Positions 2 through 54,209 of a DNA stretch of 64,000 nucleotides are shown piece by piece. The notes beneath the pieces were generated by a model. The model made no database searches and was not told where the DNA came from. It saw nothing but the letters and a program-made list of their open reading frames with translations. Position 1 is the stretch's first letter, and every line of letters starts with the position of its first letter. The position numbers were made by a program, and so were the translations under genes. The stretch is from a virus (taxonomy: Duplodnaviria > Caudoviricetes): IMG/VR virus record IMGVR_UViG_3300027754_000035. The stretch is one strand, 5' to 3'.

Positions 2-250
2 GATGGTGTTGCAACCACCCACGCAATATTGTATTTATCTAACCGATATCTCGATCATATTTGCAACATCACTTTCAAACAATATCCTCAAAACACCGAC
101 CGATGTCTTGACTATTATATTGCTCAAGAACACAGTAAGTTTAACATTTATGCGTGTCGTAAACCCATGTTTTACCAAAACGACGGCGGCAATGTTTTTT
201 TAACTAGTTATAGTTTACAACAAGTTTATCAAGATAAGTATGGCACGTAG
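2..250 (+). CDS. C-terminal fragment of a glycosyltransferase-like protein (GT25-like), 5' truncated by the window edge
   Basis: Frame is open from base 2 (DGVATTHAILYLS...DYYIAQEHSKFNIYACRKPMFYQ), resembling GT25 C-termini; overlaps the next GT gene. Confidence 0.45.
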   Translation, partial: DGVATTHAILYLSNRYLDHICNITFKQYPQNTDRCLDYYIAQEHSKFNIYACRKPMFYQNDGGNVFLTSYSLQQVYQDKYGT

Positions 251-965
251 AAAATTATTTACATATTGGGAGGGTCCAAAACCTGAGTTCGTAACAATGT
301 GCGAGGAAATTATTGCGCACAGAGTTCAACACACATTTGATTATATACGCCTCACACCAGAAAATTTGTATGAGTACATACCATATGAAGAATTTCCCCC
401 AAATTATCATCTGATCAAAGTAATTGCTCATAAAGCAGACTACTTACGTTGTCTGTTGATGATACACCACGGTGGCATTTGGTTAGATGTAGATCAAATT
501 CTATTGAACGATTTGTCTTGTATCGGTGAGTTGTTGAACACCCACGATTATGTATCTTATGAATGGGCACCACAATGCCCGTCAATAGGGTTTATAGCTG
601 CCAACCCACAAAACATATTTTTTGAACAATGGCGAGATAGTATGCGTGAACAACTGTCGGCTGACTACCAATTTCCATGGGTAGGATTAAGTTATGATCT
701 TATGTGGCCGATGTTGCAGCAGCTATTACGAGAAGATAAACTTAAATATTATGCATTTCCAGCAACAAGTAGTTTTGCACCACTGAGTCATGAACAGTTA
801 GATTGTTATTTTGAACCCAACAATTGCAGCATAAATACTCAAGGATTATACTCAGTAAAATTGTACAATTCTCAATTTCCACAATGGTTCAAAAATGCAT
901 CACGACAAGAGATACTACAAAGAGATTGTTGGATATCACATCTTTTTAGAGAGAATTTACCATAG
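240..965 (+). CDS. DXD-motif glycosyltransferase (GT32 / capsular polysaccharide synthesis family)
   Basis: HKADYLRCLLMIHHGGIWLDVD matches the (K/R)SDxxR...GGIYLDxD signature. Confidence 0.85.
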   Translation: MARRKLFTYWEGPKPEFVTMCEEIIAHRVQHTFDYIRLTPENLYEYIPYEEFPPNYHLIKVIAHKADYLRCLLMIHHGGIWLDVDQILLNDLSCIGELLNTHDYVSYEWAPQCPSIGFIAANPQNIFFEQWRDSMREQLSADYQFPWVGLSYDLMWPMLQQLLREDKLKYYAFPATSSFAPLSHEQLDCYFEPNNCSINTQGLYSVKLYNSQFPQWFKNASRQEILQRDCWISHLFRENLP

Positions 966-983
966 ATCATCATATTTATATTT

Positions 984-1484
984 ATGCCAAACCTTAAAGA
1001 ATTGGGTGATCTAGGTGATAGAATGATGCAAGGACTTCCTTTTGGTCAAGGAGGTGCTGTTAGTGGTACATCAAATCTGGATACATTCAGCAGCCCAGAT
1101 GTTACCCAAGACCCCAGTAAATTCGGTACTTTATCCGACAAAAGTAATCTTACAGCCGCTGATACACAGGCTGCGGTTACTCCATTTGGACCTTTTACTG
1201 GTCAAAATCCATGGGACTATGTTCGTGATGTAGAACAAATTAAGTACAAAGTCACTCCAGATGAAGTTATTACTGGTATGGATTACGAAATGAAAAAGTT
1301 GGTTTTGAAAGATCGTCAGGTTGCCAGAACCAATGTGGTCAAAAATCTAAAGAAAGATCCCAAATACTATAGTAAGTTGCATATGTTGGGAGTATTTCCC
1401 GACGAAAAAGATGAGGCTTTGATGGAAGTGATGGTCACGCTCAAAGCACAAAAATACGCAATCCATAGAAGAGAATACTTCTGA
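984..1484 (+). CDS. Hypothetical protein with a DUF5661-like motif
   Basis: GMDYEM...KNLKKDPKYYSKL parallels GIQIEMEH...DHLTEDPEYYTKL of 2322..3614; TATTTATA lies 3 nt before the ATG. Confidence 0.6.
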   Translation: MPNLKELGDLGDRMMQGLPFGQGGAVSGTSNLDTFSSPDVTQDPSKFGTLSDKSNLTAADTQAAVTPFGPFTGQNPWDYVRDVEQIKYKVTPDEVITGMDYEMKKLVLKDRQVARTNVVKNLKKDPKYYSKLHMLGVFPDEKDEALMEVMVTLKAQKYAIHRREYF

Positions 1485-1485
1485 T

Positions 1486-1689
1486 ATGAGTAATAATTTT
1501 GCAAATAGTCAAAAGCCACAGTACCGTACCCCAAAAAATCTACCAGGTAACTGGGATTATGTGGGTGATGGTAAATTGCACGACCCAACCATAAATAATC
1601 CAGCTATGCATGGTCGTAGATGGATGATTGACTATGGCTACAATAGTGGCAAAACTTATGACAAGTTTGTACAAGGACTAAAGAAGTAG
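1486..1689 (+). CDS. Hypothetical protein (67 aa)
   Basis: Tight operon packing, ATG start. Confidence 0.55.
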   Translation: MSNNFANSQKPQYRTPKNLPGNWDYVGDGKLHDPTINNPAMHGRRWMIDYGYNSGKTYDKFVQGLKK

Positions 1690-1691
1690 TC

Positions 1692-2279
1692 ATGGACTCT
1701 GTAAAAAGCATATTTGAAAACATTTATGTTAATAATGTTTGGGATGGTCCAGAGAGTCGGTCTGGAACTGGATCTAGTTTAGACCAAACACAAAATCTTC
1801 GTAGTTGGCTACCAAAAATAATTGACCGATATCAAATTACATCAATACTCGATGTTCCGTGTGGTGATTATTGGTGGATGCCACATGTTGACCTAAAAGG
1901 TGTACGATATGAAGGATGGGATATTGTGGATGATATTATTGCCCACAATTCTCAAAAATATAAGAATGTTACGTTTCGAGTAAACAACATCATTGAGACT
2001 GTGCCATATGGTTTCGATTTGATATTGTGTCGTGATCTTCTCAGCCATTTGTGTTTCAATGATGCGCTGTGTGCATTGAACAATTTCAAAAACAGTGGTG
2101 CAAAATATTTGATGGCAAATACATATGGGACATCGGATGTTAACATTGATATTGTCACTGGCAAGTGGTTACCAATTAATTTGCTAAAGTCTCCATACAA
2201 TCTACCCCCGTATTTGGATTGCATTGCTGACTGTGCAAATGGTATAAGCGATAAACAGATAGCAATATGGAAGTTGTGA
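1692..2279 (+). CDS. Class I SAM-dependent methyltransferase (small-molecule/glycan type)
   Basis: SGTGS, ILDVPCGD motif I, DLILCRDLLSHL. Confidence 0.85.
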   Translation: MDSVKSIFENIYVNNVWDGPESRSGTGSSLDQTQNLRSWLPKIIDRYQITSILDVPCGDYWWMPHVDLKGVRYEGWDIVDDIIAHNSQKYKNVTFRVNNIIETVPYGFDLILCRDLLSHLCFNDALCALNNFKNSGAKYLMANTYGTSDVNIDIVTGKWLPINLLKSPYNLPPYLDCIADCANGISDKQIAIWKL

Positions 2280-2321
2280 AAGAAATTCACTCGTAATCAA
2301 AATATTGCAATATTTATCTAT

Positions 2322-3614
2322 ATGATCAACAATCTTACCAAAAATATTAAGTTGTCGGGTGGTGTTGGTGACAACACACCAACTGAACAGGTTGATCCAA
2401 ATCAATTGAGTATTGGTATTCAAATCGAAATGGAACATACCAACGATGTCGCTATTGCGCAAGAAATAGCCATGGACCATTTGACCGAAGACCCCGAATA
2501 CTATACCAAGTTGGTGAAGGCTGGTTTGGCAAAAGAATTTCAACCATCAACAAATAGTGGTTTTGGTGATCCAGATCAAAGCTTCAATGATGCTGCTCGT
2601 CTTGGCAAGTCTGTAACCGCAGGCCCTGGTAACAACATTGTTGGAACCATTGGCGGTACGCCAGATGGACACACAGATGGTCGCAACAGCGAACCGTTGG
2701 TCAATAAAACTATTGACATTGAATTGGAATCCAAGAAATCTAAGAAGAAATCTGTGCCGAACAACTCCAAATTGTGGAGTAGAGCAAAGGCATTAGCCAA
2801 AGCCAAGTTTGATGTATATCCATCAGCTTATGCAAATGCTTGGGTATCCAAGTGGTACGAACAACAAGGTGGTGACTGGCATATGAGTGAAATTGATGAT
2901 AGACTCAACAGAAATCCTATACAAGTTTTCGACGGTCCTGATCCCGCTGAAGTCAGTCCTGAAGGATCTGGTACTTTTGGTAGTGGATATGATTTTGTCG
3001 GATATGCAGAAAACAAGACTAATTCTATGAAACAACAAAAACTCAAGGAAATTATCAGACGCCTTGCCCTACAATATTTGAGGGAGCAAGAAGAAGTTGG
3101 TGCCACCGCTGCACCAGAAACCGAAACCCCAGATGTAGCCGCACCAGAGGCACCAGAGGCACCAGAGGCAAGTTCCGGTGAATCTGTCACTTTGACATTG
3201 GATCGTGACACTGCACAAAAATTACATGATTTGTTGATGCAACAATTGCAATCTGGCGAAAGCACACCACCAGTGGATGATGCCGACAGCGAAGTTGAAA
3301 CTGGCGGAAGTCAGACGGTTCAAACTCCAGGCTCGGGTGCTCCATTTGGTAGCGATGAGGGTTCAGATGAAACCGCAATCGGTGAAATCACACATGAAGA
3401 ATCCAAGGATATCGATGAAGCCAAGAAGAAATGGATTCAAAAGGCAATTCATAAGAGCAAAGAAGGTGCATTGCACAAGCAATTGGATGTACCACAAGGA
3501 GAAAAGATTCCAGTAGCCAAACTCGCAGCAGCAGCAAAAAAGGGTGGCAAGTTGGGTCAACGTGCTAGATTGGCACAAACCTTGAGCAAGCTGAAAAAGA
3601 AGAAGAATAAATAA
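2322..3614 (+). CDS. Modular, probably virion-associated protein: DUF5661-like domain, WSRAK...YPSAYANAW domain, acidic linker, basic C-terminal KKWIQKAI...RARLAQTL domain
   Basis: Small modules recurrent in large phages; TATTTAT motif upstream. Confidence 0.65.
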   Translation: MINNLTKNIKLSGGVGDNTPTEQVDPNQLSIGIQIEMEHTNDVAIAQEIAMDHLTEDPEYYTKLVKAGLAKEFQPSTNSGFGDPDQSFNDAARLGKSVTAGPGNNIVGTIGGTPDGHTDGRNSEPLVNKTIDIELESKKSKKKSVPNNSKLWSRAKALAKAKFDVYPSAYANAWVSKWYEQQGGDWHMSEIDDRLNRNPIQVFDGPDPAEVSPEGSGTFGSGYDFVGYAENKTNSMKQQKLKEIIRRLALQYLREQEEVGATAAPETETPDVAAPEAPEAPEASSGESVTLTLDRDTAQKLHDLLMQQLQSGESTPPVDDADSEVETGGSQTVQTPGSGAPFGSDEGSDETAIGEITHEESKDIDEAKKKWIQKAIHKSKEGALHKQLDVPQGEKIPVAKLAAAAKKGGKLGQRARLAQTLSKLKKKKNK

Positions 3615-3653
3615 TCCAGTATCTTGACCGCCGCATATCCGATCAAAATAGGG

Positions 3654-4724: not shown

Positions 4725-5093
4725 ATGAACGATTGGTCCACAATTGATTTGGGTCATCTTCAAACAATGACTCAAATGTCGGCACTACAATCTGGTGCTG
4801 GTATACGCCACCAAGCTGCACAAATCGACACAGATGGGTTTGATCCCTACGAAGTCATGCTGCGGCGTAAAAAACGTCAAGAAGACCCACAAGCGTTCCA
4901 AGAACCGGTGGTACAACAACATCATACCCAAGACATTGTTGCGCTTGAAGAGTTTTGCCAACAACATGGCATTCTTGGATTTAACTGTGGCACCATGAGT
5001 CCCCGAGCAGCATTACAATTTTTGAAATCAAAAATGGGTATACGAGAAGAACCCAAAGTTACAAACCTAAATAAAAGTGTATTATATGGATAA
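4725..5093 (+). CDS. Hypothetical protein
   Basis: Operon packing. Confidence 0.6.
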   Translation: MNDWSTIDLGHLQTMTQMSALQSGAGIRHQAAQIDTDGFDPYEVMLRRKKRQEDPQAFQEPVVQQHHTQDIVALEEFCQQHGILGFNCGTMSPRAALQFLKSKMGIREEPKVTNLNKSVLYG

Positions 5094-5754
5094 TTCAATT
5101 GATGCGTTGGCCTGTGAACATAATTTCATCACCGATAAAACGGTGCATGGTCACAACTACAACAAAACATATTGTCGTTATTTTGATCAATTGCGCAATA
5201 ATCCTGTTAAGCTACTAGAGATTGGAGTATCAGCGGGTCACTCAGTGCAAGTATGGACAAAATATTTTGCCAATGGAACTGTTGTTGGATTTGATCAAGA
5301 TATTCGCATCAATCAATATGGTGCAACTGACAGACTTACTTTGATTCAAGGTGATCAACAAGACTCTGAATTATTGACAAAAATTAGCAACGAACATGGC
5401 CCATTTGATATTATCATTGACGATGGTAGTCATATTGATGCTATTACAAAAAAGTCTTTTGACACACTATTTCCGTTGTTGGCACCCGGCGGTCTTTATA
5501 TTGTAGAAGATCTACACACGTCGTATCAACCAATTGTGCATGGTATACCAAATAGTTGTGTGTTTATTGATCACGTTAAAGAATTGATTGATTGTGTAAA
5601 CTCACACGGTTGTTGTAGTTCTGGTGATATGTTGCGATGCACACACACCAATCCAGAGTCTCAGTATTGTTCACACGACAAAATGCAAAAAATGGACAAA
5701 CTCATAGAATTTGTCCATGCTTACAAGAATCTTGTGTTTATTAAAAAGTATTGA
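5086..5754 (+). CDS. Class I SAM-dependent O-methyltransferase (sugar O-methyltransferase-like, MycE/TylE-type core)
   Basis: HGHNY..TY..YF, LLEIGV, GPFDIIIDDGSH, LAPGGLYIVEDLHTSY. Confidence 0.85.
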   Translation: MDNSIDALACEHNFITDKTVHGHNYNKTYCRYFDQLRNNPVKLLEIGVSAGHSVQVWTKYFANGTVVGFDQDIRINQYGATDRLTLIQGDQQDSELLTKISNEHGPFDIIIDDGSHIDAITKKSFDTLFPLLAPGGLYIVEDLHTSYQPIVHGIPNSCVFIDHVKELIDCVNSHGCCSSGDMLRCTHTNPESQYCSHDKMQKMDKLIEFVHAYKNLVFIKKY

Positions 5755-6446: not shown

Positions 6447-7586
6447 TTATACGGTCAAACCCAATAAACTCAAGTCATTTCTAATCATCTTTTCTACCAA
6501 CTGATTAAATGATGTCTTTGGTGACCATTGTAATTCTTGTCTGGCCAAGTTACTATTTCCCAACAATAGATCCACTTCGGCCGGGCGATAGAACTTGGGA
6601 TTGATCCGTATCAATACACTCGACGCAGCATCATACTTGTCAACGTCGGTCGGTGTGATACTAAACTCTTCTGATGTTCCATTACCATGCCAACAACCTT
6701 CAATACCCGCATACTTGAACGCAAGTTCCACAAACTCCTTGATGGTGTGAGTTTCATTACTACTCAACACATATTCTTGAAGCTTCATATTGCTGTCAAT
6801 GTCAACACGATACTTTTCTTGATTCAACATACGCCAAATACCATCAACGAAGTCTTCGGCATCACTCCAATCACGTTTGGCATATACGTTGCCAAGTTCA
6901 ATTGCCTCAAATGTCTTGCCATTGACCAAAGCCTGCTTGATACGAGCAATACCCTTGGTGATCTTACGAGTAACAAACTCTTCACCACGACGAGTTCCTT
7001 CATGATTAAACAACAGACCTTGCACGGCATACATATTGTAACTCTCTCTGTATACCTTTACCAACTGGCGAGCAGCACTCTTGCTTGCACCATAGGGACT
7101 GCGTGGTCGTGCTGGATGATTTTCATCTTGTGGTGTATAAGCAACATTACCATATTCTTCAGACGAGCCAGCGTTATAGAACCTACATGTTGGATTATGT
7201 TGACGAATAGCTTCTAGGATATGAATGATACCAGTTGTATTGCATTCCCAAGTCTGGGCTGGAAAGTCCCAACTTGATCCAACAAATGTTTGTGCAGCTA
7301 GGTTGATAAAATAGTCAGGCTTGATTTGTTCAATTGTTTTTGAGATACTATGCGCATCACTCAGATCAAAATTAATCAACTTGAAACGACTTTCATTTTC
7401 AAGATGGCGTAGATTTTCATGATTCTTAATACTTAAGCGTCTGGCTCCGCCAAAGATAGTGTAATCGGTGTTTTTAAGCAAGTAGTCAACCATGTGGCTA
7501 CCATCTTGACCGGTTACACCGGTAACAAATACGGTCTTTTTGTTATTCATAAATTGCTTTGAATCTGAAATGTTGTATATTTCCAT
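6447..7586 (-). CDS. gmd: GDP-mannose 4,6-dehydratase
   Basis: VTGVTGQDGS, NLAAQTFV, SSEEYG, SPYGASK, LFNHEG, RDWSDAEDFV, FYRPAEVDLLLG; alternative ATG at 7550. Confidence 0.95.
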   Translation of the reverse strand: MEIYNISDSKQFMNNKKTVFVTGVTGQDGSHMVDYLLKNTDYTIFGGARRLSIKNHENLRHLENESRFKLINFDLSDAHSISKTIEQIKPDYFINLAAQTFVGSSWDFPAQTWECNTTGIIHILEAIRQHNPTCRFYNAGSSEEYGNVAYTPQDENHPARPRSPYGASKSAARQLVKVYRESYNMYAVQGLLFNHEGTRRGEEFVTRKITKGIARIKQALVNGKTFEAIELGNVYAKRDWSDAEDFVDGIWRMLNQEKYRVDIDSNMKLQEYVLSSNETHTIKEFVELAFKYAGIEGCWHGNGTSEEFSITPTDVDKYDAASSVLIRINPKFYRPAEVDLLLGNSNLARQELQWSPKTSFNQLVEKMIRNDLSLLGLTV

Positions 7587-11687: not shown

Positions 11688-12374
11688 ATGCCTAAGAAAT
11701 ACGATATAGTAATTCCGCAACGTGATCCACAAAATACCAAATTTGTGGAGCGTATTATTTCTGGGTCCAATTTGTTTTTGGCTACAGATCCGCAAGGTAA
11801 ATTGATTGGTACCGATAATTTACCACCATTCAACATATCTGGAAGTAGTATCAGTGCATCAGCACTGTTTGTTCAGGGTAAAACAGATCTACGAGGACCG
11901 TTGGTAGCAACCAGTGGATCGTTTACCAATATAGTTTTTAATCCAGGCGCACCAGCACCAATCAACAGCAATTCGTATGGTATGCCTGGCGAATTAAGAA
12001 CCGACAATAATTTTTTGTATCTGTTTTTGAACAATAAATGGAGACGTGCGCCGTTCAATTTGGATTTTTATGATACACCAAGTGTAACTCCAAGTGTAAC
12101 TCCAAGTGTAACAGTTACACCAACTAGAACTGCAACACCAAGTGTAACACCAACTAGAACTGCAACACCAAGTGTAACTGCAACACCAACTAGAACTGCA
12201 ACACCAAGTGTAACTGCAACACCTAGCTTGACTGCAACACCAAGTGTAACACCAACTAGAACTGCAACTCCAAGTGTAACTGCAACTCCGAGCTTAACTG
12301 CAACTCCGAGCTTAACTGCAACTCCGAGCTTAACAGCTACTCCAAGTGTAACACCAAGCACATCTACTCCGTAA
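11688..12374 (+). CDS. Tail-fibre-like protein with C-terminal Thr/Pro/Ser mucin-like repeats
   Basis: GMPGELRTDNNFLYLFLNNKWRRAP resembles the fibre-associated G.PG...D.NYIYVC....W.R motif; about 95 aa of TATPSV repeats. Confidence 0.65.
   Translation: MPKKYDIVIPQRDPQNTKFVERIISGSNLFLATDPQGKLIGTDNLPPFNISGSSISASALFVQGKTDLRGPLVATSGSFTNIVFNPGAPAPINSNSYGMPGELRTDNNFLYLFLNNKWRRAPFNLDFYDTPSVTPSVTPSVTVTPTRTATPSVTPTRTATPSVTATPTRTATPSVTATPSLTATPSVTPTRTATPSVTATPSLTATPSLTATPSLTATPSVTPSTSTP
12077..12370 (+). repeat. 18-nt-based tandem repeats (TATPS[VL] / TPTRTA)
   Basis: acaccaagtgtaac / actgcaac units. Confidence 0.9.
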
Positions 12375-12940: not shown

Positions 12941-13588
12941 TTATGATTTGATTAAAAAGTGATTCCAGTCAAAGTGACGAGCCTCACGAATGGTAGCATA
13001 TAGAGGAATTGGTGATGGAGCAACTGGATTACGTAGCAGCTTCAAACCAACTTCACTGTTGAGTTTATTACCCTTTTTGCTGTTGACATCCTTGCTACAC
13101 AGCACAAGATTTTCCCAACTGTCGTGGCCACCCTTGCTGCTAGGTATGATGTGGTCAATTGTGGCACTCTGTCGCTCAATCTTACGACCTGTGTATTGAC
13201 ACGTACCATTGTCACGGCGATAGATTGCATCCTTGCTAGGCTTGCCATTAAAACGCTTAACAGGCATCTTATTGAAGTTTGTAGCAATGATCACAGTTGG
13301 AGCACGCATCGTGAATCGAGCACTGTGAACCACAGGATCCCAACTACGAATCGGCAACGTCAACCACTCACTCCACGTCACAGGATTCATGCTCTTTGCT
13401 TCGGACGTAATTGGATCACCGTTATCATCGACTTCGTAATCAATGTCCAAGACCAAGCTGGTAGGCTTATCGTGGGAATCACCACTACAAAGATCAACGA
13501 TGGCGTCTTTCACAGTCTTGAAACCCACAGGCTGCCAATTGGCATTGAGGTTCAAGCAAATAGTCTTGTTGATGATACTGTTTTCCAT
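12941..13588 (-). CDS. HNH endonuclease
   Basis: CQYTG...TIDHIIPSSKGG..SWENLVLC...NSKKGN. Confidence 0.88.
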   Translation of the reverse strand: MENSIINKTICLNLNANWQPVGFKTVKDAIVDLCSGDSHDKPTSLVLDIDYEVDDNGDPITSEAKSMNPVTWSEWLTLPIRSWDPVVHSARFTMRAPTVIIATNFNKMPVKRFNGKPSKDAIYRRDNGTCQYTGRKIERQSATIDHIIPSSKGGHDSWENLVLCSKDVNSKKGNKLNSEVGLKLLRNPVAPSPIPLYATIREARHFDWNHFLIKS

Positions 13589-21512: not shown

Positions 21513-21779
21513 ATGGATTACAAACCAAAGTTACATTTTACGTGGTCGTGCATTCAACTAAATTTTGAAAAATCATGGTACAACTATTTCAGCGTTAACC
21601 TATTTGTTCCTTATTTTGAAGCAGGTAAGTTTATAGAGTTGGGAGATTCAGAAAAAACTACTAATTATTCGTTTAATGCTCCAACAACAGTTTCATTTGT
21701 TTCAACACACGCATATTGGGGTATCAAAACACAGCTATTGGGTTTTGGTATAGGATTTTTGCGACAAAACGGTTATTAA
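21513..21779 (+). CDS. Hypothetical protein
   Basis: ORF track. Confidence 0.5.
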   Translation: MDYKPKLHFTWSCIQLNFEKSWYNYFSVNLFVPYFEAGKFIELGDSEKTTNYSFNAPTTVSFVSTHAYWGIKTQLLGFGIGFLRQNGY

Positions 21780-27799: not shown

Positions 27800-27817
27800 T
27801 GCCCTCTATTTATAGGC

Positions 27818-30265: not shown

Positions 30266-30297
30266 TAAACAACTGATACCAAATACTATTTATTGAT

Positions 30298-36948: not shown

Positions 36949-37695
36949 TTACATATCGCCAATCCACTTGACAGAAACCATGTGATCATTGTTGCTGTCG
37001 TGAATAACGTAGTAATTGCAATGGCTTACATCCAAACACAGATTTTGGCTATAATCATTGCTCAAGGAAGATCCACTGTTGATCCAACGAGGTTTTGTCT
37101 GAGGAGTATGACCAAAAATTTGGTTAACACCTGTAACCGGCTTAAACTCGGTGGCATCACACCAATTAATGCCACCACGCAATTCATCGCCACCACGGCT
37201 TCTTCCAGCACGTAGAATAGGCAAAGCTGCCTTGGCATCAAATGCGTGTTGCAATGCTTCGGTGCAAGTATTTTTCAACCAAGACTTGAACTCGGTATCT
37301 TTGCCATATTTATCATAGAAATAGGGATGTACACCAGCATGACTACACAACCAACTACCAACCCAAGTGTAAAGAGGCAACTTTCGCCAGTCAGATTCAC
37401 TCAACACGGCATTAATAGCATAATCTTTTGAGGATTCATAACCACTGCATTTGTAGCTTCTATGGTTGAAAGCATAGTTGGTATCATGATTTCCCATGAT
37501 ATGGATACGATTCTTTTGCTCAAGACTAGCAGCAAGCCACTGTGCGGTATCTTTGGCAATGCGCCAATCATCGCCGAAGTCGTCAAAGTAATCGCCTAGA
37601 AAAACAATTTGATCGGCAGATTCATGCTTGATGATTTTTTCTGCTTTGTCCCATTTGTTATGAATATCCGCAAGGATGAGAGTTCTAACGTTCAT
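36949..37695 (-). CDS. Calcineurin-like metallophosphoesterase
   Basis: DIH, GDYFD, GNHD, SHAG, GHT motifs. Confidence 0.88.
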   Translation of the reverse strand: MNVRTLILADIHNKWDKAEKIIKHESADQIVFLGDYFDDFGDDWRIAKDTAQWLAASLEQKNRIHIMGNHDTNYAFNHRSYKCSGYESSKDYAINAVLSESDWRKLPLYTWVGSWLCSHAGVHPYFYDKYGKDTEFKSWLKNTCTEALQHAFDAKAALPILRAGRSRGGDELRGGINWCDATEFKPVTGVNQIFGHTPQTKPRWINSGSSLSNDYSQNLCLDVSHCNYYVIHDSNNDHMVSVKWIGDM

Positions 37696-38312: not shown

Positions 38313-38501
38313 TTAACAGCAGTGACCCTGCTTTTTTATTTCTGGTTGTGGACATCTGACACCTATACCGGGTTTAACCTTATATAGTTCCAGATATAGT
38401 TCTTGTGTAAGTTTGTCGATTGTTTTTACCACCTTTGGTACACCAATACTGGTATCAATCTCGTGTATTTTGCTTAAATAATTTTTAATGATATTATTCA
38501 T
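38313..38501 (-). CDS. Small hypothetical protein
   Basis: MNNIIK... start overlaps the upstream stop. Confidence 0.45.
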   Translation of the reverse strand: MNNIIKNYLSKIHEIDTSIGVPKVVKTIDKLTQELYLELYKVKPGIGVRCPQPEIKKQGHCC

Positions 38502-39825
38502 CGTCCCAGATTTTGATTTTGCTCCAACTACTATCTTTGAAGAAAAGATCGGGATCGCCAAAGTGGTCCATTGCTGCCTGCACAACATTACCGTTACCCC
38601 AATAATTACCAGTAATGAATCCATCTGGCTTTATTTTTGGCAACCAAGTCGCCAACAATCTCCAGTTGTGTTGGTAACTCCGATGTTCATTTATGTAGAT
38701 CAGATCAATACTGTTGTTTTCAAATTGATCAGCAGCTTCCAATGCATCCACATCATCAATCACTTTGACGAACGGATATGGTTCAGTACGTAGTTTGAAA
38801 TTGTTACGCACATCTTCCAACGCAATATTCTTGGGCCAGCTATCATCAATAGCATCAAATTGATCTATCACAAACAGTTCTTCGGGTTGTAGATACTTGG
38901 CAATCAATGATGTGGCTTCGCCTTGATAACAATTGATTTCAACAATACGTTTTACTTTGAAATCACGTTCGTCTTGATTCTTCTTGATGTAATTCAAAAA
39001 GTCAATAAAGCCAGTCAAATAGACTTTCGCGGGATTGTCCAAACCACTCAAAAACTTGATGTCGTTGTCGGTACCAAAAAATTGTTCTTGCACACCAATA
39101 CCCAAACGACTGTTTTGAATCATGCGCAACTTGTTTTTGGCGTTGGCAAGCTTTTTCTTACTGATACGCTTTGCCCAACTATGGTCCTCGAAATGGGCAT
39201 CTATGTTGCTAACAGTGTCAGTAATTGTTTTGACAACCACATCACTACCCCATTCACCACCCGCAATGATTCCACCATCACGCAACTTTGGAAGATACAG
39301 ATCCAACAACTGTCGTAGTTTGCTTGCGGAATTGTTGCTGCCCAGATAAATAAAATCAAAACTACCATCATCAAACAAATGTACGGCGTCAATGATATCA
39401 ACATCGTGAAGATTGACACATGGAAAATGTTTGGCTCTCAAAAAGAAGTTGTGTTTTACATCGTCCCACTTATGCAAGAAAATTGATTCATCGTTATTTT
39501 GAACGTCGAGTGGCTTACGACTTTCAAAAGACTCAACAGCATGAATGCTATTGGGATTTAGTTTGTGTGCAAATATTGTGGTCAATTCACCTTGGAAACA
39601 GTTGAGTTCCAATGCATTTTTTACTTGAATCTTGCTATTGACATACTCGCACAAATCCAAAGCACCTTTAAGAGGATCTGGTAGAAAATATGTAGTATCC
39701 AGAATAAATTCGATGCTCTGTGAACTAACATAAAACTGATTGCTTACACCAGCGTCGGATGCAGGCACACCCAGTCGAAACTTTTTTACTGTATTGATCA
39801 GTGGTATATTTGTGTTTGTTGCCAT
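38494..39825 (-). CDS. Tandem two-domain class I methyltransferase-like protein (Methyltransf_24-like)
   Basis: Two repeats: E.NC[FY]QGE...FDFIY/IDLIY...LPK..DG. Confidence 0.75.
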   Translation of the reverse strand: MATNTNIPLINTVKKFRLGVPASDAGVSNQFYVSSQSIEFILDTTYFLPDPLKGALDLCEYVNSKIQVKNALELNCFQGELTTIFAHKLNPNSIHAVESFESRKPLDVQNNDESIFLHKWDDVKHNFFLRAKHFPCVNLHDVDIIDAVHLFDDGSFDFIYLGSNNSASKLRQLLDLYLPKLRDGGIIAGGEWGSDVVVKTITDTVSNIDAHFEDHSWAKRISKKKLANAKNKLRMIQNSRLGIGVQEQFFGTDNDIKFLSGLDNPAKVYLTGFIDFLNYIKKNQDERDFKVKRIVEINCYQGEATSLIAKYLQPEELFVIDQFDAIDDSWPKNIALEDVRNNFKLRTEPYPFVKVIDDVDALEAADQFENNSIDLIYINEHRSYQHNWRLLATWLPKIKPDGFITGNYWGNGNVVQAAMDHFGDPDLFFKDSSWSKIKIWDDE

Positions 39826-39868: not shown

Positions 39869-40144
39869 TTACTTCTGTAGTAGAAACTCAGCGAGTTGTT
39901 GTTGCTTTTGTTTGTCAAAAACAAATTCGTCGGTAAATGGATATCCTTTGAACACGATGTGGTATATCCACCTTAGTTTTTGTCGCCAATCCATTTTACG
40001 TCCTACCAAACCTCGTTCAAATATACTGAGGTATACTTCTGATTCGTCGGTGAATCGTTCAACCACCAAACCATGGCTATAACAATCACACATGATGAAC
40101 ATTTGACTGTTGTTTAGATCGTTAGTTTTCTTTCCAATTTCCAT
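39869..40144 (-). CDS. Hypothetical protein
   Basis: CDCYSHGL motif. Confidence 0.55.
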   Translation of the reverse strand: MEIGKKTNDLNNSQMFIMCDCYSHGLVVERFTDESEVYLSIFERGLVGRKMDWRQKLRWIYHIVFKGYPFTDEFVFDKQKQQQLAEFLLQK

Positions 40145-40674
40145 AAATTATTATACAAGTAACGGTTGGCTCGACACAGATGTTTGAAAACAAAACGGAT
40201 AATTTCGTTGTATGGTCTAAATATAATTCGATACACCAACGTGCTTTCAAATACCCAACGCTGCTTCATAAGCTCAGTATGAACTCTTTGTTGTTCAAGT
40301 CTGTATGAATTATCACGGGCCACAAACTGCGTCAAATCCACTTTTTGTACTTTACCATCAATTATTGTAATTTGGTATTCTATGCTATAGTCCAAGCCCT
40401 TTTTAGTGGAACTGATATAGTCATGAATTTCTATGGTCTGTGTAATATTGTGCGGCACCCAATGCGTATCTTTGATTTTGAATGGCAACATTTGGTCGTC
40501 CGTAGTTTCATACGTCACATTCAAAATCCACAATGTACCATCTTCTCGGATTTCAAATTTATCCAATGCATTGTTCAAAGACTTTGTTTGAAAATCTACA
40601 GATCCAGTATAGCCTTGCGCATCCGCAGGCATTGGTAATGGATACTTACAATTGATATCGTCGAACATTCCCAT
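40114..40674 (-). CDS. Conserved phage hypothetical protein
   Basis: MGMFDDINCKYPLP...FQTKSL motif. Confidence 0.65.
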   Translation of the reverse strand: MGMFDDINCKYPLPMPADAQGYTGSVDFQTKSLNNALDKFEIREDGTLWILNVTYETTDDQMLPFKIKDTHWVPHNITQTIEIHDYISSTKKGLDYSIEYQITIIDGKVQKVDLTQFVARDNSYRLEQQRVHTELMKQRWVFESTLVYRIIFRPYNEIIRFVFKHLCRANRYLYNNLWKLERKLTI

Positions 40675-40687: not shown

Positions 40688-41950
40688 TTACTTTTTGATT
40701 TTTACTTGTTTAATCCAACTACTATCTTTGAAATAGATGTTTGGTTCACCAATGGTTGCAAGACATGTTTGTACAACATCGCCGCTGCCCCATCCAATAC
40801 CACATATGTATCCACCTGGTTTTATCTTTGGTAGTGCTTTTTCAATAATGGTTTGTAAATACGTTCTATTGTCATGTTCATTGATATAGAGCATATCAAT
40901 ACTATCATCTTCAAACAAATCATCCAACACAACAATAGGATTGTGCGGCAGTAGACGAACACAATCAAATGGCTTGGTACGAAACTCGAAATTTTGCCGG
41001 ATCTTGTTTATATCGTTTGCACCCAAAATATATGATGGTAGCTTGTCAAACGCATCAATGACGTACAAAGTCTTGGGTTTTAGATAATTAGCAAATAGTT
41101 CGGTTGTTTCACCTTGATAGCAGTTCACTTCCACAATTGTTTGTATATTTTTTGGTTTAATATACTCTAAAAATTCAAAGATTGAATCAAGGTATGCCGA
41201 TTTATGTTTGGTTTGCAATTCCAAAATATCGTCGGGGTGTGTTGTGAATTGCCGATGTAAACCCTGACCCAATCGTGTGTTTGGTAGTTGATGCATTTTT
41301 GCCAAACGCTTCAACTTTGGTGTCACTTTAACCAACCAACTACTATCTTCAAAATAGATGTCTACGTCACCAAACATTTCGATCAGAGCGGCGGTGACTC
41401 CACCTTTGCCCAAATCGTGTCCACCGAGGTATCCATTTACTTTTACTTTTTGTAGATACAACTTGATGTCACGCAATACACCTTCATACGTATGTTCACC
41501 GTCAATGTAAACGAAGTCTAGACTATCATCTTCAAATTTATCGGCTACATTTTGACTAAAGTCTTTGATGTGTTTAATACACGGAAACTGCTCGGTTCGC
41601 AATTTGAAGTTGTAACTCACATCGTCAAAATTAGCAAACGAACTATCATCGTTTGAATCGTAACCATTTACAAACGGATCCATAGCAAACAATTCCTTTG
41701 GCTTCAAATACAATGCGAACAAACTGGTACTTTCGCCTTGGTAGCTACCAATCTCAACCATGCGTTGCACATCAACTTCTTTTTTTACATGGTTGATACA
41801 CGCAATGAGTCCACGCAACCAATTGTTTTGAAACAAATCGTCATGACTCAATATGTAGGCAATATTTTCGTCAGTGGCAAAAAATTGTTGTTCGCCAAGG
41901 CCTGTGCCCAACCGCATACATGGTAGTTTACGTAACAGAGTATTATCCAT
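40688..41950 (-). CDS. Tandem two-domain class I methyltransferase (Methyltransf_24-like)
   Basis: Domain 1 is canonical: VEIGSYQGES, LDFVYIDGEHTYEGV..DI, GYLGGHD; domain 2 is degenerate. Confidence 0.82.
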   Translation of the reverse strand: MDNTLLRKLPCMRLGTGLGEQQFFATDENIAYILSHDDLFQNNWLRGLIACINHVKKEVDVQRMVEIGSYQGESTSLFALYLKPKELFAMDPFVNGYDSNDDSSFANFDDVSYNFKLRTEQFPCIKHIKDFSQNVADKFEDDSLDFVYIDGEHTYEGVLRDIKLYLQKVKVNGYLGGHDLGKGGVTAALIEMFGDVDIYFEDSSWLVKVTPKLKRLAKMHQLPNTRLGQGLHRQFTTHPDDILELQTKHKSAYLDSIFEFLEYIKPKNIQTIVEVNCYQGETTELFANYLKPKTLYVIDAFDKLPSYILGANDINKIRQNFEFRTKPFDCVRLLPHNPIVVLDDLFEDDSIDMLYINEHDNRTYLQTIIEKALPKIKPGGYICGIGWGSGDVVQTCLATIGEPNIYFKDSSWIKQVKIKK

Positions 41951-43535: not shown

Positions 43536-44645
43536 TTAAACAGCTACATCAAACTTAATTGTCGGGTGAAACTCGTAATCAAGTAGTTTGATATCATCAT
43601 ATTTGAAATCAAACAATGATTTGACTTCTGGATTCAACCACAACTTCGGCAATTTTTTAGGTTCTCTCGTAAGTTGTAGTTTCAATCCATCAAGATGATT
43701 CACATAAATGTGCGTATCTCCGGTTGAATGTGTGAATGTACCTGTAGTCATATTGACCGTCTGTGCAATCATGGCAGTTAATAGTGAATAACTAGCTACG
43801 TTAAATGGATTTCCGAGTGCCGTGTCTTGCGATCTTTGGTACAACAAACAATTCAAACGACGGCTTGGAATATTTTCCTCGGCTAATTTTTGAATAACCC
43901 ACATTTCCGATTTAGGAAGATTTACAGGACCAACTTGTTTTTGTAAAATTTCAATTCTCTCTTCCAATGTCAATTCTTCTGTATGGAACTGGAATAAGCA
44001 ATGACAGGGCGGCAAAGCACAATGATCTACCCAATATGGATGCCATGCACTTACGATCATACGTCTGTCGTCTGGATAGAACTTGAGTTTCTCAATGACT
44101 TTCCTCAGCTGATCTACAGTGTCTAGGGTTTCTTTGCCCTCTGAGGGTGCCACTGTATCATAGTCATTGTAAAATGGAAATGCTCGCCACATTCCACCAT
44201 AAGTTCCTTCACCAAGTTCACCCCATCTATTTGCAAACGATTCGTCAAATTTAATTTTTTCAACAAATTCTTCTTGTGTCAATTTGTTCTCTTGCACCGC
44301 TGGAATTTCTTTCTCCAGATTTTCTGGAGAAGTATAGAATTTTGCTCTATTTTCCCACCAATCAGAATATTTCTTGTATGCCCATTCGTTCCAAATACGA
44401 ACATTGTTATCAACCAGATATTTGATATTGGTGTCGCCACTGATGAACCACAATAGTTCATGAACAATAGCTGGCCAATGAACTTTCTTGGTTGTTAGAA
44501 TTGGAAATGCGTTGAGGTCAACGTCGTATTTGGCTTGAGCACCAAAAATACCGATTGTATCAATGCCGGTACGATTTTTCTTAACTTTTCCGTTTGTCAA
44601 AATATCATTGACAATTCTGAAATATTCTGTGTCTACTTTGTTCAT
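43536..44645 (-). CDS. thyA: Thymidylate synthase
   Basis: NRTGIDT, FPILTTKK, HELLWF, ALPPCH, YQRSQD, PFNVASY, GDTHIY. Confidence 0.95.
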   Translation of the reverse strand: MNKVDTEYFRIVNDILTNGKVKKNRTGIDTIGIFGAQAKYDVDLNAFPILTTKKVHWPAIVHELLWFISGDTNIKYLVDNNVRIWNEWAYKKYSDWWENRAKFYTSPENLEKEIPAVQENKLTQEEFVEKIKFDESFANRWGELGEGTYGGMWRAFPFYNDYDTVAPSEGKETLDTVDQLRKVIEKLKFYPDDRRMIVSAWHPYWVDHCALPPCHCLFQFHTEELTLEERIEILQKQVGPVNLPKSEMWVIQKLAEENIPSRRLNCLLYQRSQDTALGNPFNVASYSLLTAMIAQTVNMTTGTFTHSTGDTHIYVNHLDGLKLQLTREPKKLPKLWLNPEVKSLFDFKYDDIKLLDYEFHPTIKFDVAV

Positions 44646-49838: not shown

Positions 49839-49839
49839 A

Positions 49840-50804: not shown

Positions 50805-50805
50805 A

Positions 50806-51270: not shown

Positions 51271-51272
51271 AA

Positions 51273-52114: not shown

Positions 52115-52120
52115 ATTTTC

Positions 52121-52690: not shown

Positions 52691-52692
52691 AA

Positions 52693-52944: not shown

Positions 52945-52967
52945 AAAATATTGATGTCGTTGTAATC

Positions 52968-52995
52968 AGTATACCACACGATCAAACATTGTCAA
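52968..52995 (-). promoter_or_regulatory. Sigma70-like promoter with extended -10, 16-nt spacer
   Basis: TTGACA-N16(TGTGG)-TATACT. Confidence 0.75.
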
Positions 52996-53031
52996 CAACA
53001 GAGTTAGCTACAAGAGGTTATTAACTGAAAG

Positions 53032-53108
53032 TGGTGGGCCCTGTCGGATTTGAACCGACAACCAGTTTTTTATGAGAAAACCGCTCTAACCAATTGAGCT
53101 AAGGGCCC
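53032..53108 (-). tRNA. tRNA-Ile2 (CAT, lysidine type)
   Basis: Cloverleaf GGGCCCT...GGGCCC-A-CCA; loop CTCATAA; close to E. coli ileX architecture. Confidence 0.85.
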
Positions 53109-53113
53109 TGAAA

Positions 53114-53188
53114 TGGGGAGCGGGTCCGAACTTTGCATTTCGCCTTCTGATCTGGACGACCAGCGTGCTCTCTTTACACTTGACCCGC
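53114..53188 (-). ncRNA. Degenerate tRNA-Gly(TCC)-like RNA
   Basis: Acceptor GCGGGTC/GACCCGC, U73, D and anticodon stems intact; loop CGTCCAG (G33) and no TTC T-loop. Confidence 0.6.
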
Positions 53189-53296
53189 ATTAAAAATTTG
53201 CAAGACTTACGAGTATCTTGCTGCCCTTTGAAAACTGAAGCCTAGTTGATCATTTCCAGACTGGGGTACTATGAGGTAGCTATCCTCAACAACCTC

Positions 53297-53324
53297 ACTA
53301 TATACCACAATTCGGAACTGTCAA
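53297..53324 (-). promoter_or_regulatory. Sigma70-like promoter, 16-nt spacer
   Basis: TTGACA-N16-TATAGT. Confidence 0.7.
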
Positions 53325-53354
53325 CAACAATAATAACTATGTATATGTAGAACT

Positions 53355-54209
53355 ATGAATTTCAAAAATACTGATATAATCGTGGTAAATCTTGTGAATC
53401 ATGATTTTCCACTGTTTCGCAAATTTTTGATCAATAATCATCAACATTTCAACAAAATTCATTATGTTGTGAATGGACCAGGATATCAGTTTAATAATAC
53501 CGAATCATACAATTATTTGGATGTGGTCAAAAGAAGCTTACCATTCGCAGATATTGTGTATGCATACCACGAAGATATTGATCATAGCAAACCCACAGAT
53601 CCCAGATCTTATTCAACAAATTTAGCACTGGATCGCAGCACCAGTGAATCTGTGTTGTTTCTGGAACCAGACGTGATCATTGGCAACATGGACTACCTTT
53701 TGAATTTGCCTGATACGTTTGACTACGTGGCACATTGTGAGGATAGTACGTATAGACTGTCACCATCTTTGATTTGGGCAAAACGTCATTTGATTGATGC
53801 CACATCTCGACAGTTTTTGTATGGTCACAATTTCCCATTTATTCGTAAATTGGTTGAACCACCTGAAAGCAGCACTCCAATTGCTGATCGAATTCGATAT
53901 TTCCCTGGACCAATTGGTGCCGATCACTTTGATTTTTTCACGGGTGAATTGTTGGGATTGAGCACCAATGCACATTTTATCAACCATCGATCATTTGATT
54001 TTTGGCATATGGGTGCAGTCATTCAAACAATGCATCTATTTAGATGTGGCGTATATGAATCAAATGGTGTACCCATATACAATTATCCCATGATGATTAA
54101 TTATCTACAACGCACATTGGATTGTGGTGTTGAACTGGACGATAGATATATAAAAGAATGTACCGCACATATTCAAAATATGAATGCGGTACTACAAGCT
54201 TTGGCTTGA
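53355..54209 (+). CDS. Putative GT-A glycosyltransferase-like protein within the tRNA cluster, opposite strand
   Basis: DFPLFRK; VLFLEPDV at the DXD position; paralog of 35694..36632. Confidence 0.55.
   Translation: MNFKNTDIIVVNLVNHDFPLFRKFLINNHQHFNKIHYVVNGPGYQFNNTESYNYLDVVKRSLPFADIVYAYHEDIDHSKPTDPRSYSTNLALDRSTSESVLFLEPDVIIGNMDYLLNLPDTFDYVAHCEDSTYRLSPSLIWAKRHLIDATSRQFLYGHNFPFIRKLVEPPESSTPIADRIRYFPGPIGADHFDFFTGELLGLSTNAHFINHRSFDFWHMGAVIQTMHLFRCGVYESNGVPIYNYPMMINYLQRTLDCGVELDDRYIKECTAHIQNMNAVLQALA

Follow-up and report, generated by a model that had tools for sequence, protein, structure and literature searches.

The 64,000-nucleotide stretch of DNA analyzed here (the window), which belongs to a very large aquatic tailed phage with a genome of at least ~240 kb, is predicted to encode synthesis of sugar donors, soluble glycosyltransferases (GTs), several methyltransferases, and three proteins carrying TATPS repeats. 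Our leading explanation, held tentatively, is that virion proteins are glycosylated in the cytoplasm, with the TP linkers as probable, though not obligate, acceptors. Specifically, the lineage of this phage would possess its own cytoplasmic glycan-building toolkit, and the phage GTs and methyltransferases would modify virion proteins during assembly, as in mycobacteriophages. An N-terminal module would tether two of the repeat proteins, TP1 and TP2, to the virion, and the repeats would act as long extended stalks that keep lectin or Cys-rich heads off the particle, the Thr/Ser-rich stalks being favored acceptors here, neither sole nor obligate. A sugar-coated virion fiber is plausible in this phage. 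The glycan-related genes do not form a single operon-like system, as they are spread over 54 kb, interspersed with replication and nucleotide-metabolism genes (ThyA, dCMP deaminase, NAMPT, and PRPP synthetase).

Donor synthesis, glycosyltransferases, and methyltransferases

Our results uphold the earlier proposal that the phage makes its own donors, with L-rhamnose predicted to arise via a giant-virus/plant-type enzyme, alongside a GDP-6-deoxyhexose route. RmlA, glucose-1-phosphate thymidylyltransferase (23973-24818, minus strand), and RmlB, dTDP-glucose 4,6-dehydratase (22157-23134, minus strand), pass the curated cut-offs of TIGR01207 (395.7 bits versus 360.65) and TIGR01181 (366.4 bits versus 365.1), respectively. 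The putative epimerase-reductase (23107-23976, minus strand; 289 aa) is, judging by its sequence, a plant/Mimivirus-type bifunctional 4-keto-6-deoxyglucose 3,5-epimerase/4-reductase (NRS/ER, UGER type) for the L-rhamnose synthase step. Its top PDB match is the Arabidopsis 3,5-epimerase/4-reductase 4QQR (1.2e-28), it also matches 7JID (Mimivirus L780, a UDP-L-rhamnose synthase; 1.6e-14), its alignment keeps the GC(I)-motif Cys and the Lys of YxxxK, and it reaches only 62 bits on the bacterial RmlD model TIGR01214, against a cut-off of 224. The presence of this bifunctional enzyme accounts for the lack of any RmlC candidate among the ORFs scanned. Thus arranged, RmlA would yield dTDP-glucose, RmlB would yield the 4-keto-6-deoxy intermediate, and the bifunctional enzyme would stand in for RmlC and RmlD to give activated L-rhamnose, with Gmd starting the GDP-6-deoxyhexose branch. 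Gmd itself (GDP-mannose 4,6-dehydratase; 6447-7586, minus strand) matches PF16363 at 9.4e-104, though its TIGR01472 score (3e-96, 322.6 bits) falls under that model's cut-off of 415; its identity is 76-81% in four relatives, including the best long one (G001; 303 kb, 89% complete). A GNAT acetyltransferase gene (21776-22153, minus strand; PF00583 at 1.9e-08) ends the rhamnose cluster; six relatives have it next after RmlB, and a seventh (L014) has it 1.2 kb upstream of NRS/ER. The rml cluster has 47-78% amino-acid identity across ~15 IMG/VR phage contigs, and the sugar, GT, and methyltransferase genes are kept across ~15 related contigs.

Roughly six GT-like genes had been proposed; of these, sequence similarity supports at least two as bona fide GTs, the GT32-like and GT4 genes, and one as a probable GT-A enzyme. 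No TM segment is predicted in any GT or methyltransferase of the window, in line with the claim that the phage encodes soluble GTs. The GT32-like gene (240-965, plus strand), which has a DXD sugar-binding region, scores above the cut-offs of PF04488 (1e-08, 36.2 bits versus 23) and PF05704 (Caps_synth). The GT4 gene (24885-25850, plus strand), divergent from the rml cluster, matches PF00534 (6e-08, above cut-off) and phrog_2170 glycosyltransferase (1e-14), its top PDB match being a weak one to chlorovirus NY-2A B736L (1e-3); since NRS/ER adjoins it both in the window and in G001 (69% identity), it is the best candidate rhamnosyltransferase. The case is softer for the probable GT-A-type gene (16982-17782, plus strand), which combines a hydrophobic strand-DSD motif and an ED motif with matches to phrog_1574 (unknown function; 9e-20) and, weakly, to phrog_34859 glycosyltransferase (5e-4), no match in a Pfam search, and 70-71% identity in six relatives, G001 among them. 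The remaining three calls found no sequence-level support: an 82-aa fragment at 2-250; P0005 (35694-36632, minus strand), considered below; and the orphan protein P0006 (53355-54209, plus strand), which is GT-like by language-model features only, has no match in Pfam, PHROG, or PDB sequence searches, and has two tandem paralogues in G001, immediately following a Methyltransf_24 gene.

For the methyltransferases, the initial count of six domains in four genes held for five predicted Methyltransf_24 domains (TylF/CmcI clan) in three genes. One domain lies at 5077-5754 (plus strand; PF13578 at 4e-08, above cut-off; phrog_21658 methyltransferase at 1.6e-30), two at 38494-39825 (minus strand; PF13578 at 1.8e-16 in two stretches; 77% identity in G001), and two at 40688-41950 (minus strand; PF13578 at 2.2e-22 in two stretches). 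The last has phage Methyltransf_24 (MT24) proteins as its nearest Atlas clusters, some of which overlap families of sugar O-methyltransferases (TylF and RMNT_CmcI), as well as a weak match to TIGR04371 "putative sugar O-methyltransferase". The fourth gene (1692-2279, plus strand) is a possible class I SAM methyltransferase, with weak matches to Methyltransf_31/12/25/23 (E 5e-4 to 5e-3) that are all under the cut-offs.

TP-repeat proteins and their neighbors

The three TATPS-repeat proteins described initially are present, and no other ORF of the window reaches 60% T/S/P within a 40-aa stretch. They are TP1 (27818-30265, plus strand; 815 aa, 327 Ser+Thr), TP2 (30298-34962, plus strand; 1554 aa, 551 Ser+Thr), and TP3 (11688-12374, plus strand; 228 aa, 69 Ser+Thr). 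Their repeat unit is a TATPSx hexapeptide, with a base period of 18 nt and higher-order 120-nt units that are 99% identical. TP1, whose ATG is preceded at 3 nt by the motif CTATTTATA, consists of an N-terminal module (residues 1-100), a TATPS repeat of 560 aa, and a Cys-rich C-terminal domain with 38% identity to that of P0025. In TP2, the N-module precedes five TP linkers that separate four lectin domains of ConA-like type (aa 419-581, 763-927, 1011-1175, and 1334-1496), whose modeled fold (pLDDT 63) resembles the jelly rolls of GH16, legume lectins, and SPRY. TP2 also matches phrog_19691 "virion structural protein" (1e-16), and its lectin domain is 35% identical to Cellulophaga phage phiST gp021, a "structural protein" (E 2e-12). 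TP3 has a globular domain of ~130 aa followed by a TATPS tail of ~95 aa; its G001 orthologue (72% identity) stops right after the globular domain, without a TP tail.

New in our analysis are the four lectin domains of TP2 and the N-module of ~95 aa common to TP1 and TP2, a family of 29 representatives that other phages join to Ig-like repeats, phosphoesterase, or protease-like cargo through linkers ranging from ~10 aa to 560 aa. The confident AF2 model of this module (pLDDT 85) resembles none of the known domains that bind capsids or tails and suggests a novel fold. The TP proteins have the features expected of proteins displayed on the virion. The enzyme cargo (PhoD, metallophosphoesterase) on relatives' N-modules would also be compatible with release or injection instead of a place in fibers.

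Convergent with TP2 lies P0005, a member of a phage-specific family, without a match in Pfam, PHROG, or PDB sequence searches, whose ESM-Atlas model (pLDDT 0.55) resembles GT2/GT8 with TM scores of 0.5-0.59, possibly representing a divergent GT-A fold. A calcineurin-like metallophosphoesterase (36949-37695, minus strand; PF00149 at 4e-14) is a conserved component of an MT24-phosphoesterase-P0005 block, with synteny in five relatives including G001, which has neither P0005 nor long linkers. In relatives, the P0005 family occurs as two to three tandem copies in arrays beside PT-linker proteins, and it adjoins large opposite-strand PT-linker proteins in all three lineages with readable neighbors, the window's own included. 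If any genes modify the linkers specifically, this block near TP2 is the leading candidate.

Co-occurrence and competing explanations

Absence of co-occurrence between TP-repeat and enzyme genes had been set beforehand as evidence against the proposal, and the overall outcome was mixed. Strict co-occurrence fails, as G001 retains GT4, NRS/ER, Gmd, the GT-A gene, both double-methyltransferase genes, and 12 Methyltransf_24 domains, and has no TATPS protein in its 303 kb; the toolkit must therefore have a target besides the TP repeats. Nor was a TATPS ORF found in three fragmentary relatives (G002, G003, and G005), in a more distant complete one (G004; 184 kb), or in the 10-kb flanks of other relatives' loci. 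G001 also lacks RmlA, RmlB, the GT32-like gene, and P0005, all of which the window has.

That relatives keep these genes with or without TP repeats would also suit their remodeling the surface polysaccharide of the infected cell (LPS, capsule, or other glycan), for instance to block superinfection or raise precursor supply, with the TP proteins being unrelated, unglycosylated, modular proteins. Although rml, gmd, and GT genes are usually read this way when marine phages carry them, and their dispersal among nucleotide-metabolism genes recalls auxiliary metabolic genes, we consider it rather unlikely here: lipid-carrier machinery was not found, the window being devoid of an initiating phosphoglycosyl transferase, a flippase, a polymerase, a ligase, and (by TM prediction) any polytopic membrane protein, although the host could supply these steps; G001 has neither Bac_transf nor Wzy_C; and all of the GTs are without a predicted TM segment. 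Less likely again, in our judgment, is glycosylation confined to conserved structural proteins (capsid, tail tube, or other), with TATPS repeats as bare, semi-rigid spacers projecting lectin or Cys-rich heads. PT/TP linkers often function unglycosylated, and the enzyme set of G001, the dispensable add-on tail of TP3, the variable linker length in the N-module family, and the near-identical 120-nt units, which suggest that the repeats expanded recently by slippage rather than being conserved as an acceptor, all accord with such spacers. However, the P0005 family and MT24 genes adjoin PT-linker proteins in three lineages, in the single window-G001 comparison the repeats go together with RmlA, RmlB, the GT32-like gene, and P0005, and with promiscuous GTs nearby in the cytoplasm, hundreds of exposed Thr/Ser would presumably not stay unmodified easily.

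It is improbable that the GTs and methyltransferases instead act on the phage DNA, hypermodifying it with methyl groups and glycans. Methyltransferases of the TylF/CmcI clan, like L-rhamnose and GDP-6-deoxyhexose, typify glycan rather than DNA chemistry, the ThyA homologue aligns with canonical thymidylate synthases (256 bits), a dCMP deaminase is encoded, and neither a hydroxymethylase nor a hydroxymethyl-base route was seen within the window. Pointing the other way, phage GTs are classically DNA-directed, the methyltransferase at 38494 has as its nearest PHROG family phrog_2675, labeled "DNA methyltransferase", and diverse DNA glycans are on record, as cited in PMC12619734.

Comparison with known systems

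One set of parallels to cytoplasmic virion glycosylation comes from viruses. Mycobacteriophages Che8, Corndog, and Myrna O-glycosylate their virions (Freeman et al. 2023, as cited in PMC12619734), the acceptors being short C-terminal stretches of the capsid and tail-tube subunits and the GT genes adjoining structural genes. Soluble phage GTs, a proposed cytoplasmic modification of virion proteins, and a tailed phage coated with surface glycans would be shared features; in contrast, the candidate acceptors here, judged from genes alone, are dedicated fiber-like proteins with TATPS repeats of up to 560 aa, and this phage encodes its own donor synthesis and many methyltransferases. Among giant viruses, Mimivirus R141/L780 form a UDP-L-rhamnose pathway accompanying glycosylated fibrils, and chlorovirus PBCV-1 (A064R/A061L), which has N-linked glycans on its capsid protein, methylates terminal L-Rha at O-2 and O-3 (PMC9614988). 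The plant/L780-type bifunctional enzyme, the combination of rhamnose with several SAM methyltransferase domains, and the weak chlorovirus match of GT4 recall these systems, and virus-encoded donors, GTs, and methyltransferases would likewise work autonomously. Unlike them, this is a tailed bacterial phage whose first steps are of the bacterial RmlA/RmlB (dTDP) type, rather than a UDP-glucose dehydratase.

Cellular glycoproteins offer a second comparison. BclA of the Bacillus anthracis exosporium nap bears a rhamnose oligosaccharide with an O-methylated anthrose cap, and serine-rich-repeat adhesins are glycosylated in the cytoplasm by the GT4 enzymes GtfA/B. Long Thr/Ser stalks with a terminal binding domain, Rml genes with methyltransferases, GT4 as a possible initiator, and, as proposed, O-linked cytoplasmic modification ahead of display would be common ground, whereas TATPSx hexapeptides replace their GXX collagen triplets or SxSx dipeptides. 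The head-decoration adhesins T4 Hoc and T5 pb10, to which the N-module has no sequence or fold similarity, pair a small anchoring module, a role the N-module may fill here, with displayed Ig-like or binding domains, and the N-module family includes Big_13 Ig-like repeats. Finally, secreted bacterial carbohydrate-active enzymes have Pro/Thr-rich interdomain linkers, usually of 20-100 aa, some natively O-glycosylated by host enzymes. The TP proteins and their relatives similarly place PT/TP-rich extended spacers between globular modules (lectin/CBM-like domains, PhoD), but these spacers reach 560 aa, are phage-encoded, and adjoin phage GT and methyltransferase genes.

Nucleotide-sugar synthesis genes across the phage lineage

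The genes of the window are those of a typical large tailed phage (NAMPT, PRPP synthetase, Nudix hydrolase, ClpP-like prohead protease, HNH, SNF2, dCMP deaminase, thymidylate synthase and lysozyme), the G+C is ~38%, and a megablast search with 7 kb of the window returned no close DNA relative among GenBank phages. In IMG/VR, genes for RmlA (23973-24818, minus strand in the window), a 289-aa epimerase-reductase (23107-23976, minus) and RmlB (22157-23134, minus), often joined by a GNAT gene, cluster in 14 contigs at 47-75% amino-acid identity, many of which also share SNF2, HNH, protease, Gmd, GT-A and dCMP-deaminase neighbors. The closest long relative, G001 (303,564 bp, estimated 89% complete), is syntenic with most of the window at 60-85% identity. 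The 642-kb LR756502.1, which gave the best NAMPT match, was dropped as a relative, since it carries neither the N-terminal module of the repeat proteins nor Methyltransf_24 domains. Separately, a 430-aa protein (2322-3614, plus) that combines an N-terminal DUF5661 with long acidic and Lys-rich low-complexity stretches is 46-53% conserved and adjoins the lysozyme gene in G001 and in two related fragments, G002 and G003.

The initial annotation had named RmlA, RmlB, an epimerase-reductase and Gmd, and all four calls held. Specifically, RmlA and RmlB exceed their NCBIfam equivalog cut-offs, Gmd (6447-7586, minus) is clear by Pfam, though below its NCBIfam equivalog cut-off, and the PDB relatives of the 289-aa SDR are NRS/ER-type enzymes, the only matches being 4QQR (the Arabidopsis 3,5-epimerase/4-reductase, 1.2e-28) and 7JID (Mimivirus L780, 1.6e-14). 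Bacterial RmlD was rejected as its identity (62 bits against a TIGR01214 equivalog cut-off of 224), and by homology the SDR is closer to the NRS/ER (UGER) enzymes. Further, its ‘sGCIya’ aligns with ‘tGCIfe’ in both structures, and its ‘YsgtK’ aligns with ‘YsktK’ and ‘YsvvK’, such that a Cys in the GC(I) motif and the Lys of YxxxK are kept. L780 is reported to be bifunctional, to take both UDP- and dTDP-linked substrates and to rely on the catalytic residues Cys108 and Lys175 (PMC9614988). From these motifs, we infer that the aligned Cys and Lys columns are the published Cys108 and Lys175, the chain numbering being offset by a few residues. No RmlC-like match was found among the scanned window ORFs (Pfam, NCBIfam, PHROGs), which would be explained by the 289-aa enzyme being of the bifunctional 3,5-epimerase/4-reductase type, with a predicted conversion of NDP-4-keto-6-deoxyglucose to NDP-L-rhamnose. 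The gene order RmlA-NRS/ER-RmlB is kept in relatives with no extra gene between, and the rhamnose synthase, which homology places with the giant-virus/plant type, is a conserved feature of a phage lineage. G001 keeps the NRS/ER gene (192518-193375), but neither RmlA nor RmlB was found by tblastn of its genome; the 4-keto-6-deoxyglucose intermediate would therefore come from the host, or the two genes lie in the missing 11%.

Predicted glycan transfer and modification

About six GT-like genes had been proposed. Two of these phage-encoded GTs are firm, a GT32-like gene (240-965, plus) and a GT4 gene (24885-25850, plus), both above Pfam cut-offs; the GT-A gene (16982-17782, plus) is probable, with a DSD motif, a weak GT PHROG match and ~70% conservation in relatives. 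P0005 (35694-36632, minus) and P0006 (53355-54209, plus) are weak candidates whose one basis is ESM-Atlas likeness to GT-A folds, and a GT-like fragment at 2-250 found no support. As single sequences, neither P0005 nor P0006 matches a GT family in Pfam, PHROG or PDB, and the P0005 family gave no GT match when 10 members were compared with Pfam and the family profile with PDB; a pattern scan of IMG/VR returned no P0005 relatives. Structurally, GT2/GT8 clusters align with the P0005 Atlas model (TM 0.47-0.59, model pLDDT 0.55), and its family holds an invariant A-R-x-E-T-D after a hydrophobic strand. For P0006, the ESM-Atlas likeness to GT-A is by features only, and no relatedness between P0005 and P0006 was detectable.

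Of the six methyltransferase domains reported initially, five are firm Methyltransf_24 domains and the sixth is sub-threshold. Two genes are double-domain (38494-39825 and 40688-41950, both minus). The protein encoded at 40688 clusters most closely with Methyltransf_24 families from phages, and since several of these overlap TylF and rhamnosyl-O-methyltransferase/CmcI, ‘sugar O-methyltransferase’ is a reasonable lead rather than a result. Between the two double-domain genes lies a 186-aa protein (40114-40674, minus; phrog_1615, of unknown function), for which a methyltransferase identity was rejected. Its homologue sits directly beside, or within ~1.5 kb of, RmlA in eight relatives (L006, L007, L009, L010, L013, L017, G003 and G005), and it is a conserved, uncharacterized companion of the sugar genes.

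Glycans made by this set could be destined for lipid-linked polymers, DNA or proteins. In contrast to Wzx/Wzy or ABC lipid-carrier pathways, no initiating transferase, flippase, polymerase or ligase accompanies the GTs: no TM segment is predicted in the GTs or methyltransferases of the window, which has no polytopic membrane protein, and G001 has neither PF02397 (the Bac_transf-type phosphoglycosyl transferase) nor PF04932 (Wzy/ligase). Host genes could complement such a pathway, so that host-complemented lipid-linked synthesis is possible. DNA targets are possible as well, although, unlike in the T-even phages with their glycosylated hydroxymethyl-base DNA, no dCMP/dUMP hydroxymethylase was found in the window. 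Here, the ThyA homologue matches canonical thymidylate synthases (6e-75), with no hydroxymethylase structures among the ThyA matches listed for the window, and a dCMP deaminase is present, which together argue against a hydroxymethyl-base route to DNA glycosylation in the window. The lack of membrane-spanning transferases, of lipid-carrier genes and of a hydroxymethyl-base route thus favors a soluble, cytoplasmic transfer onto proteins. Taking all of the evidence together, cytoplasmic glycosylation of virion proteins is the best explanation that we can offer, one held tentatively and at somewhat short of an even chance.

Compared with most solved TS chains and with the Pfam model of 266 positions, the thymidylate synthase (43536-44645, minus) has ~40-100 aa inserted, and its Pfam match is split into two stretches around query residues 224-261.

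Repeat proteins, their heads and their start sites

Three TATPS-repeat proteins had been singled out as mucin-like acceptors, and TP1 (27818-30265, plus), TP2 (30298-34962, plus) and TP3 (11688-12374, plus) indeed carry such repeats and are the sole T/S/P-rich ORFs of the window. The base period of the repeats is 18 nt, and a recent expansion is indicated by 120-nt units, some of them 99% identical; locally, they lift the G+C to 0.44-0.48 and take the GC skew to -0.32. Antisense ORFs at 28519-29550 and 30552-31520 were set aside as repeat artefacts, given that both termini encoded by the sense frame are conserved domains, and a TonB_2 match in TP2 was dismissed as low-complexity noise. The repeat genes are flanked by mobile nucleases, with a GIY-YIG-like ORF (26857-27222, plus; a probable nuclease from its sequence motif) just upstream of TP1 and an HNH endonuclease (12941-13588, minus) adjoining TP3.

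TP1 and TP2 share an N-terminal module of ~95 aa that has just 29 matching sequences in 1.8 billion representative proteins, with none recovered from IMG/VR by exact-pattern or single-protein scans or from GenBank phages by tblastn. Its model (pLDDT 85) packs three helices on a three-stranded sheet and has no structural match in PDB or BFVD. In the proteins that carry it, a PT/TP linker connects the module to varied cargo: a Cys-rich domain resembling the one in TP1 (38% identity), Big_13 Ig-like repeats, a metallophosphoesterase or protease-like domains. The metallophosphoesterase cargo was seen on the N-module protein of G001 and on P0027, another N-module protein. Contigs with N-module homologues are <=5 kb and hence unusable for a co-occurrence test. 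Neither the N-domain of TP3 nor the C-domain of TP1 matched anything in Pfam, PHROG or PDB.

TP2 contains four copies of a 165-aa domain (31525-34787) that are 63-72% identical. The domain model (pLDDT 63) returned 205 PDB matches at E<=1e-3 (Foldseek: GH16, legume lectins, SPRY) with TM 0.4-0.55, and, as modeled, the domain is a ConA-like beta-jelly-roll for which carbohydrate binding is predicted and SPRY-type protein binding is an alternative. When the copies are aligned, their frameworks are nearly invariant and three or four loops differ almost completely; these could be diversified ligand-binding loops. The domain also matches phrog_19691, ‘virion structural protein’ (1e-16), and shares 35% identity with a segment of Cellulophaga phage phiST gp021, a protein encoded amid structural genes and annotated as structural by similarity to phi13:1 gp15; presumably, these structural annotations rest on virion proteomics. 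The homology to phrog_19691 and phiST gp021 is the best evidence for a putative display of TP2 on the particle. With an anchor module, a spacer and a swappable binding or enzymatic head, the architecture works like that of a decoration or fibre protein, the attachment being putative.

The TP1 and TP2 genes also share a start-proximal motif, [ACT]TATTTAT[AT], which lies 3-10 nt before the ATG of eight window genes, namely, TP1, TP2 and six others (motif sites in the window are 27806-27817, 30286-30297, 16926, 15753 and 11665). On the plus strand, CTATTTAT occurs only twice, at TP1 and TP2, and TP3 has TATTTATA 15 nt upstream of its ATG. In G001, 44 of 93 motif copies are likewise placed 3-10 nt before an ATG, and behind the motif are, among others, the gene of the N-module protein, the orthologue of TP3, a gene resembling head-tail adaptors and several large ORFs. 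Such spacing leaves no room for a Shine-Dalgarno sequence, and the motif resembles a promoter or leaderless-start element that lies close to the start codon and is specific to the lineage; as a promoter, it may give leaderless or very short-leader mRNAs. The T4 late -10 box, TATAAATA, is its reverse complement. PHROGs assigned no ‘late’ class to the genes behind the motif.

Enzymes, repeats and the proposed glycocalyx

Co-occurrence of the enzymes with the repeat proteins across relatives gave a mixed picture, in which the strict form of the association fails. G001 keeps the GT4 (69%), NRS/ER (78%), Gmd (78%) and GT-A (71%) genes and both double-domain methyltransferase genes (64-77%), its GT4 again adjoins NRS/ER, and it totals 3 GT2 matches, 3-6 GT4 matches and 12 Methyltransf_24 domains. 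Yet TATPS-type proteins are missing from G001. The PT linker in its N-module protein is 15 aa long and leads to a phosphoesterase head, and the G001 orthologue of TP3 (72% identity) ends where the TP tail would start. TATPS ORFs are also absent from the fragments G002, G003 and G005, from the complete, more distant G004 and from the 10-kb flanks of the remaining loci. Given that relatives keep the enzymes without TATPS proteins, the enzyme set would have a TP-independent target. A different Ser/Thr-rich repeat protein occupies the same neighborhood in G003, where a collagen-like protein of 1028 aa (G003:66070-69153, minus; equivalent to L014:3196-6279), in which GSS/GTS/GSA triplets form long repeats, lies 3.7 kb from NRS/ER.

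A looser association is suggested around P0005. In the window, TP1 begins 2 kb downstream of the GT4 gene, and P0005, which is convergent with TP2, is 0.7 kb away from the TP2 end, in a neighborhood that is otherwise non-structural (the probable GIY-YIG nuclease, a phosphoesterase and ThyA). In relatives, the P0005 family forms two or three tandem paralogues within a conserved block, ordered as the double-domain methyltransferase, a metallophosphoesterase, the P0005 copies and then a 71-aa ORF. Large PT-linker proteins come next, on the opposite strand, in all three lineages with a readable flank (the window, L058/L059 and L060-62); those of the relatives have PhoD phosphatase and beta-sandwich domains connected by the linkers. 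G001, which is without P0005, RmlA, RmlB and the GT32-like gene, is also without long linkers. With lineages few and non-randomly sampled, we treat this association as a lead only. At the position held by TP1 and TP2 in the window, the relatives, from estuary and other metagenomes, carry 760-1070-aa proteins (L058:5977-11828 and L060:5234-7510, both minus) composed of a PhoD-type alkaline phosphatase, PT linkers and a C-terminal beta-sandwich. These and the metallophosphoesterase proteins with the N-module could be virion-displayed or released phosphatases.

In a further-reaching version of the glycocalyx proposed initially, the TP stalks would receive dense O-linked L-rhamnose and 6-deoxyhexoses while in the cytoplasm, with O-methylation as the cap. 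All of the enzymes would be phage-encoded, including the giant-virus/plant-type rhamnose synthase and a previously unrecognized GT family (P0005), and the product would be a bottle-brush ‘glycocalyx’ tipped with lectin heads. The gene inventory behind this proposal is real and, in the type of rhamnose synthase and its lineage-wide conservation, stronger than first read; the closest relative indicates that the enzymes do not need the TP repeats. A putative glycocalyx is plausible, and we consider it unlikely that the TATPS stalks of TP1, TP2 and TP3 are themselves glycosylated as mucin-like fibres built by a tailed phage. Whether or not the TP repeats are glycosylated, three findings are testable in their own right: the N-terminal module, swappable and putatively for display; the conservation of the RmlA-NRS/ER-RmlB cluster; and the block of methyltransferase, phosphoesterase and P0005 genes.

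The ability to make glycans autonomously is considered a hallmark of the giant viruses of eukaryotes, and, to our knowledge, virion glycosylation in tailed phages has so far been documented only for some mycobacteriophages. Virus-made glycans would reach far more widely into the bacteriophages if a lineage of large aquatic phages had a rhamnose pathway of its own, through a bifunctional enzyme of the plant/Mimivirus type, together with a dozen sugar-type methyltransferase domains, numerous soluble GTs and, in one member or more, mucin-like stalks with lectins at their tips. Such a lineage would also be relevant to how phages adhere to mucus or polysaccharide matrices, how they evade immunity or defenses and how genes move between phages and giant viruses. 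Phage-encoded GTs are common to the mycobacteriophages and the lineage described here, in which virion glycans are putative, and the proposed glycocalyx would be a functional analogue, in a bacteriophage, of the Mimivirus fibrils.
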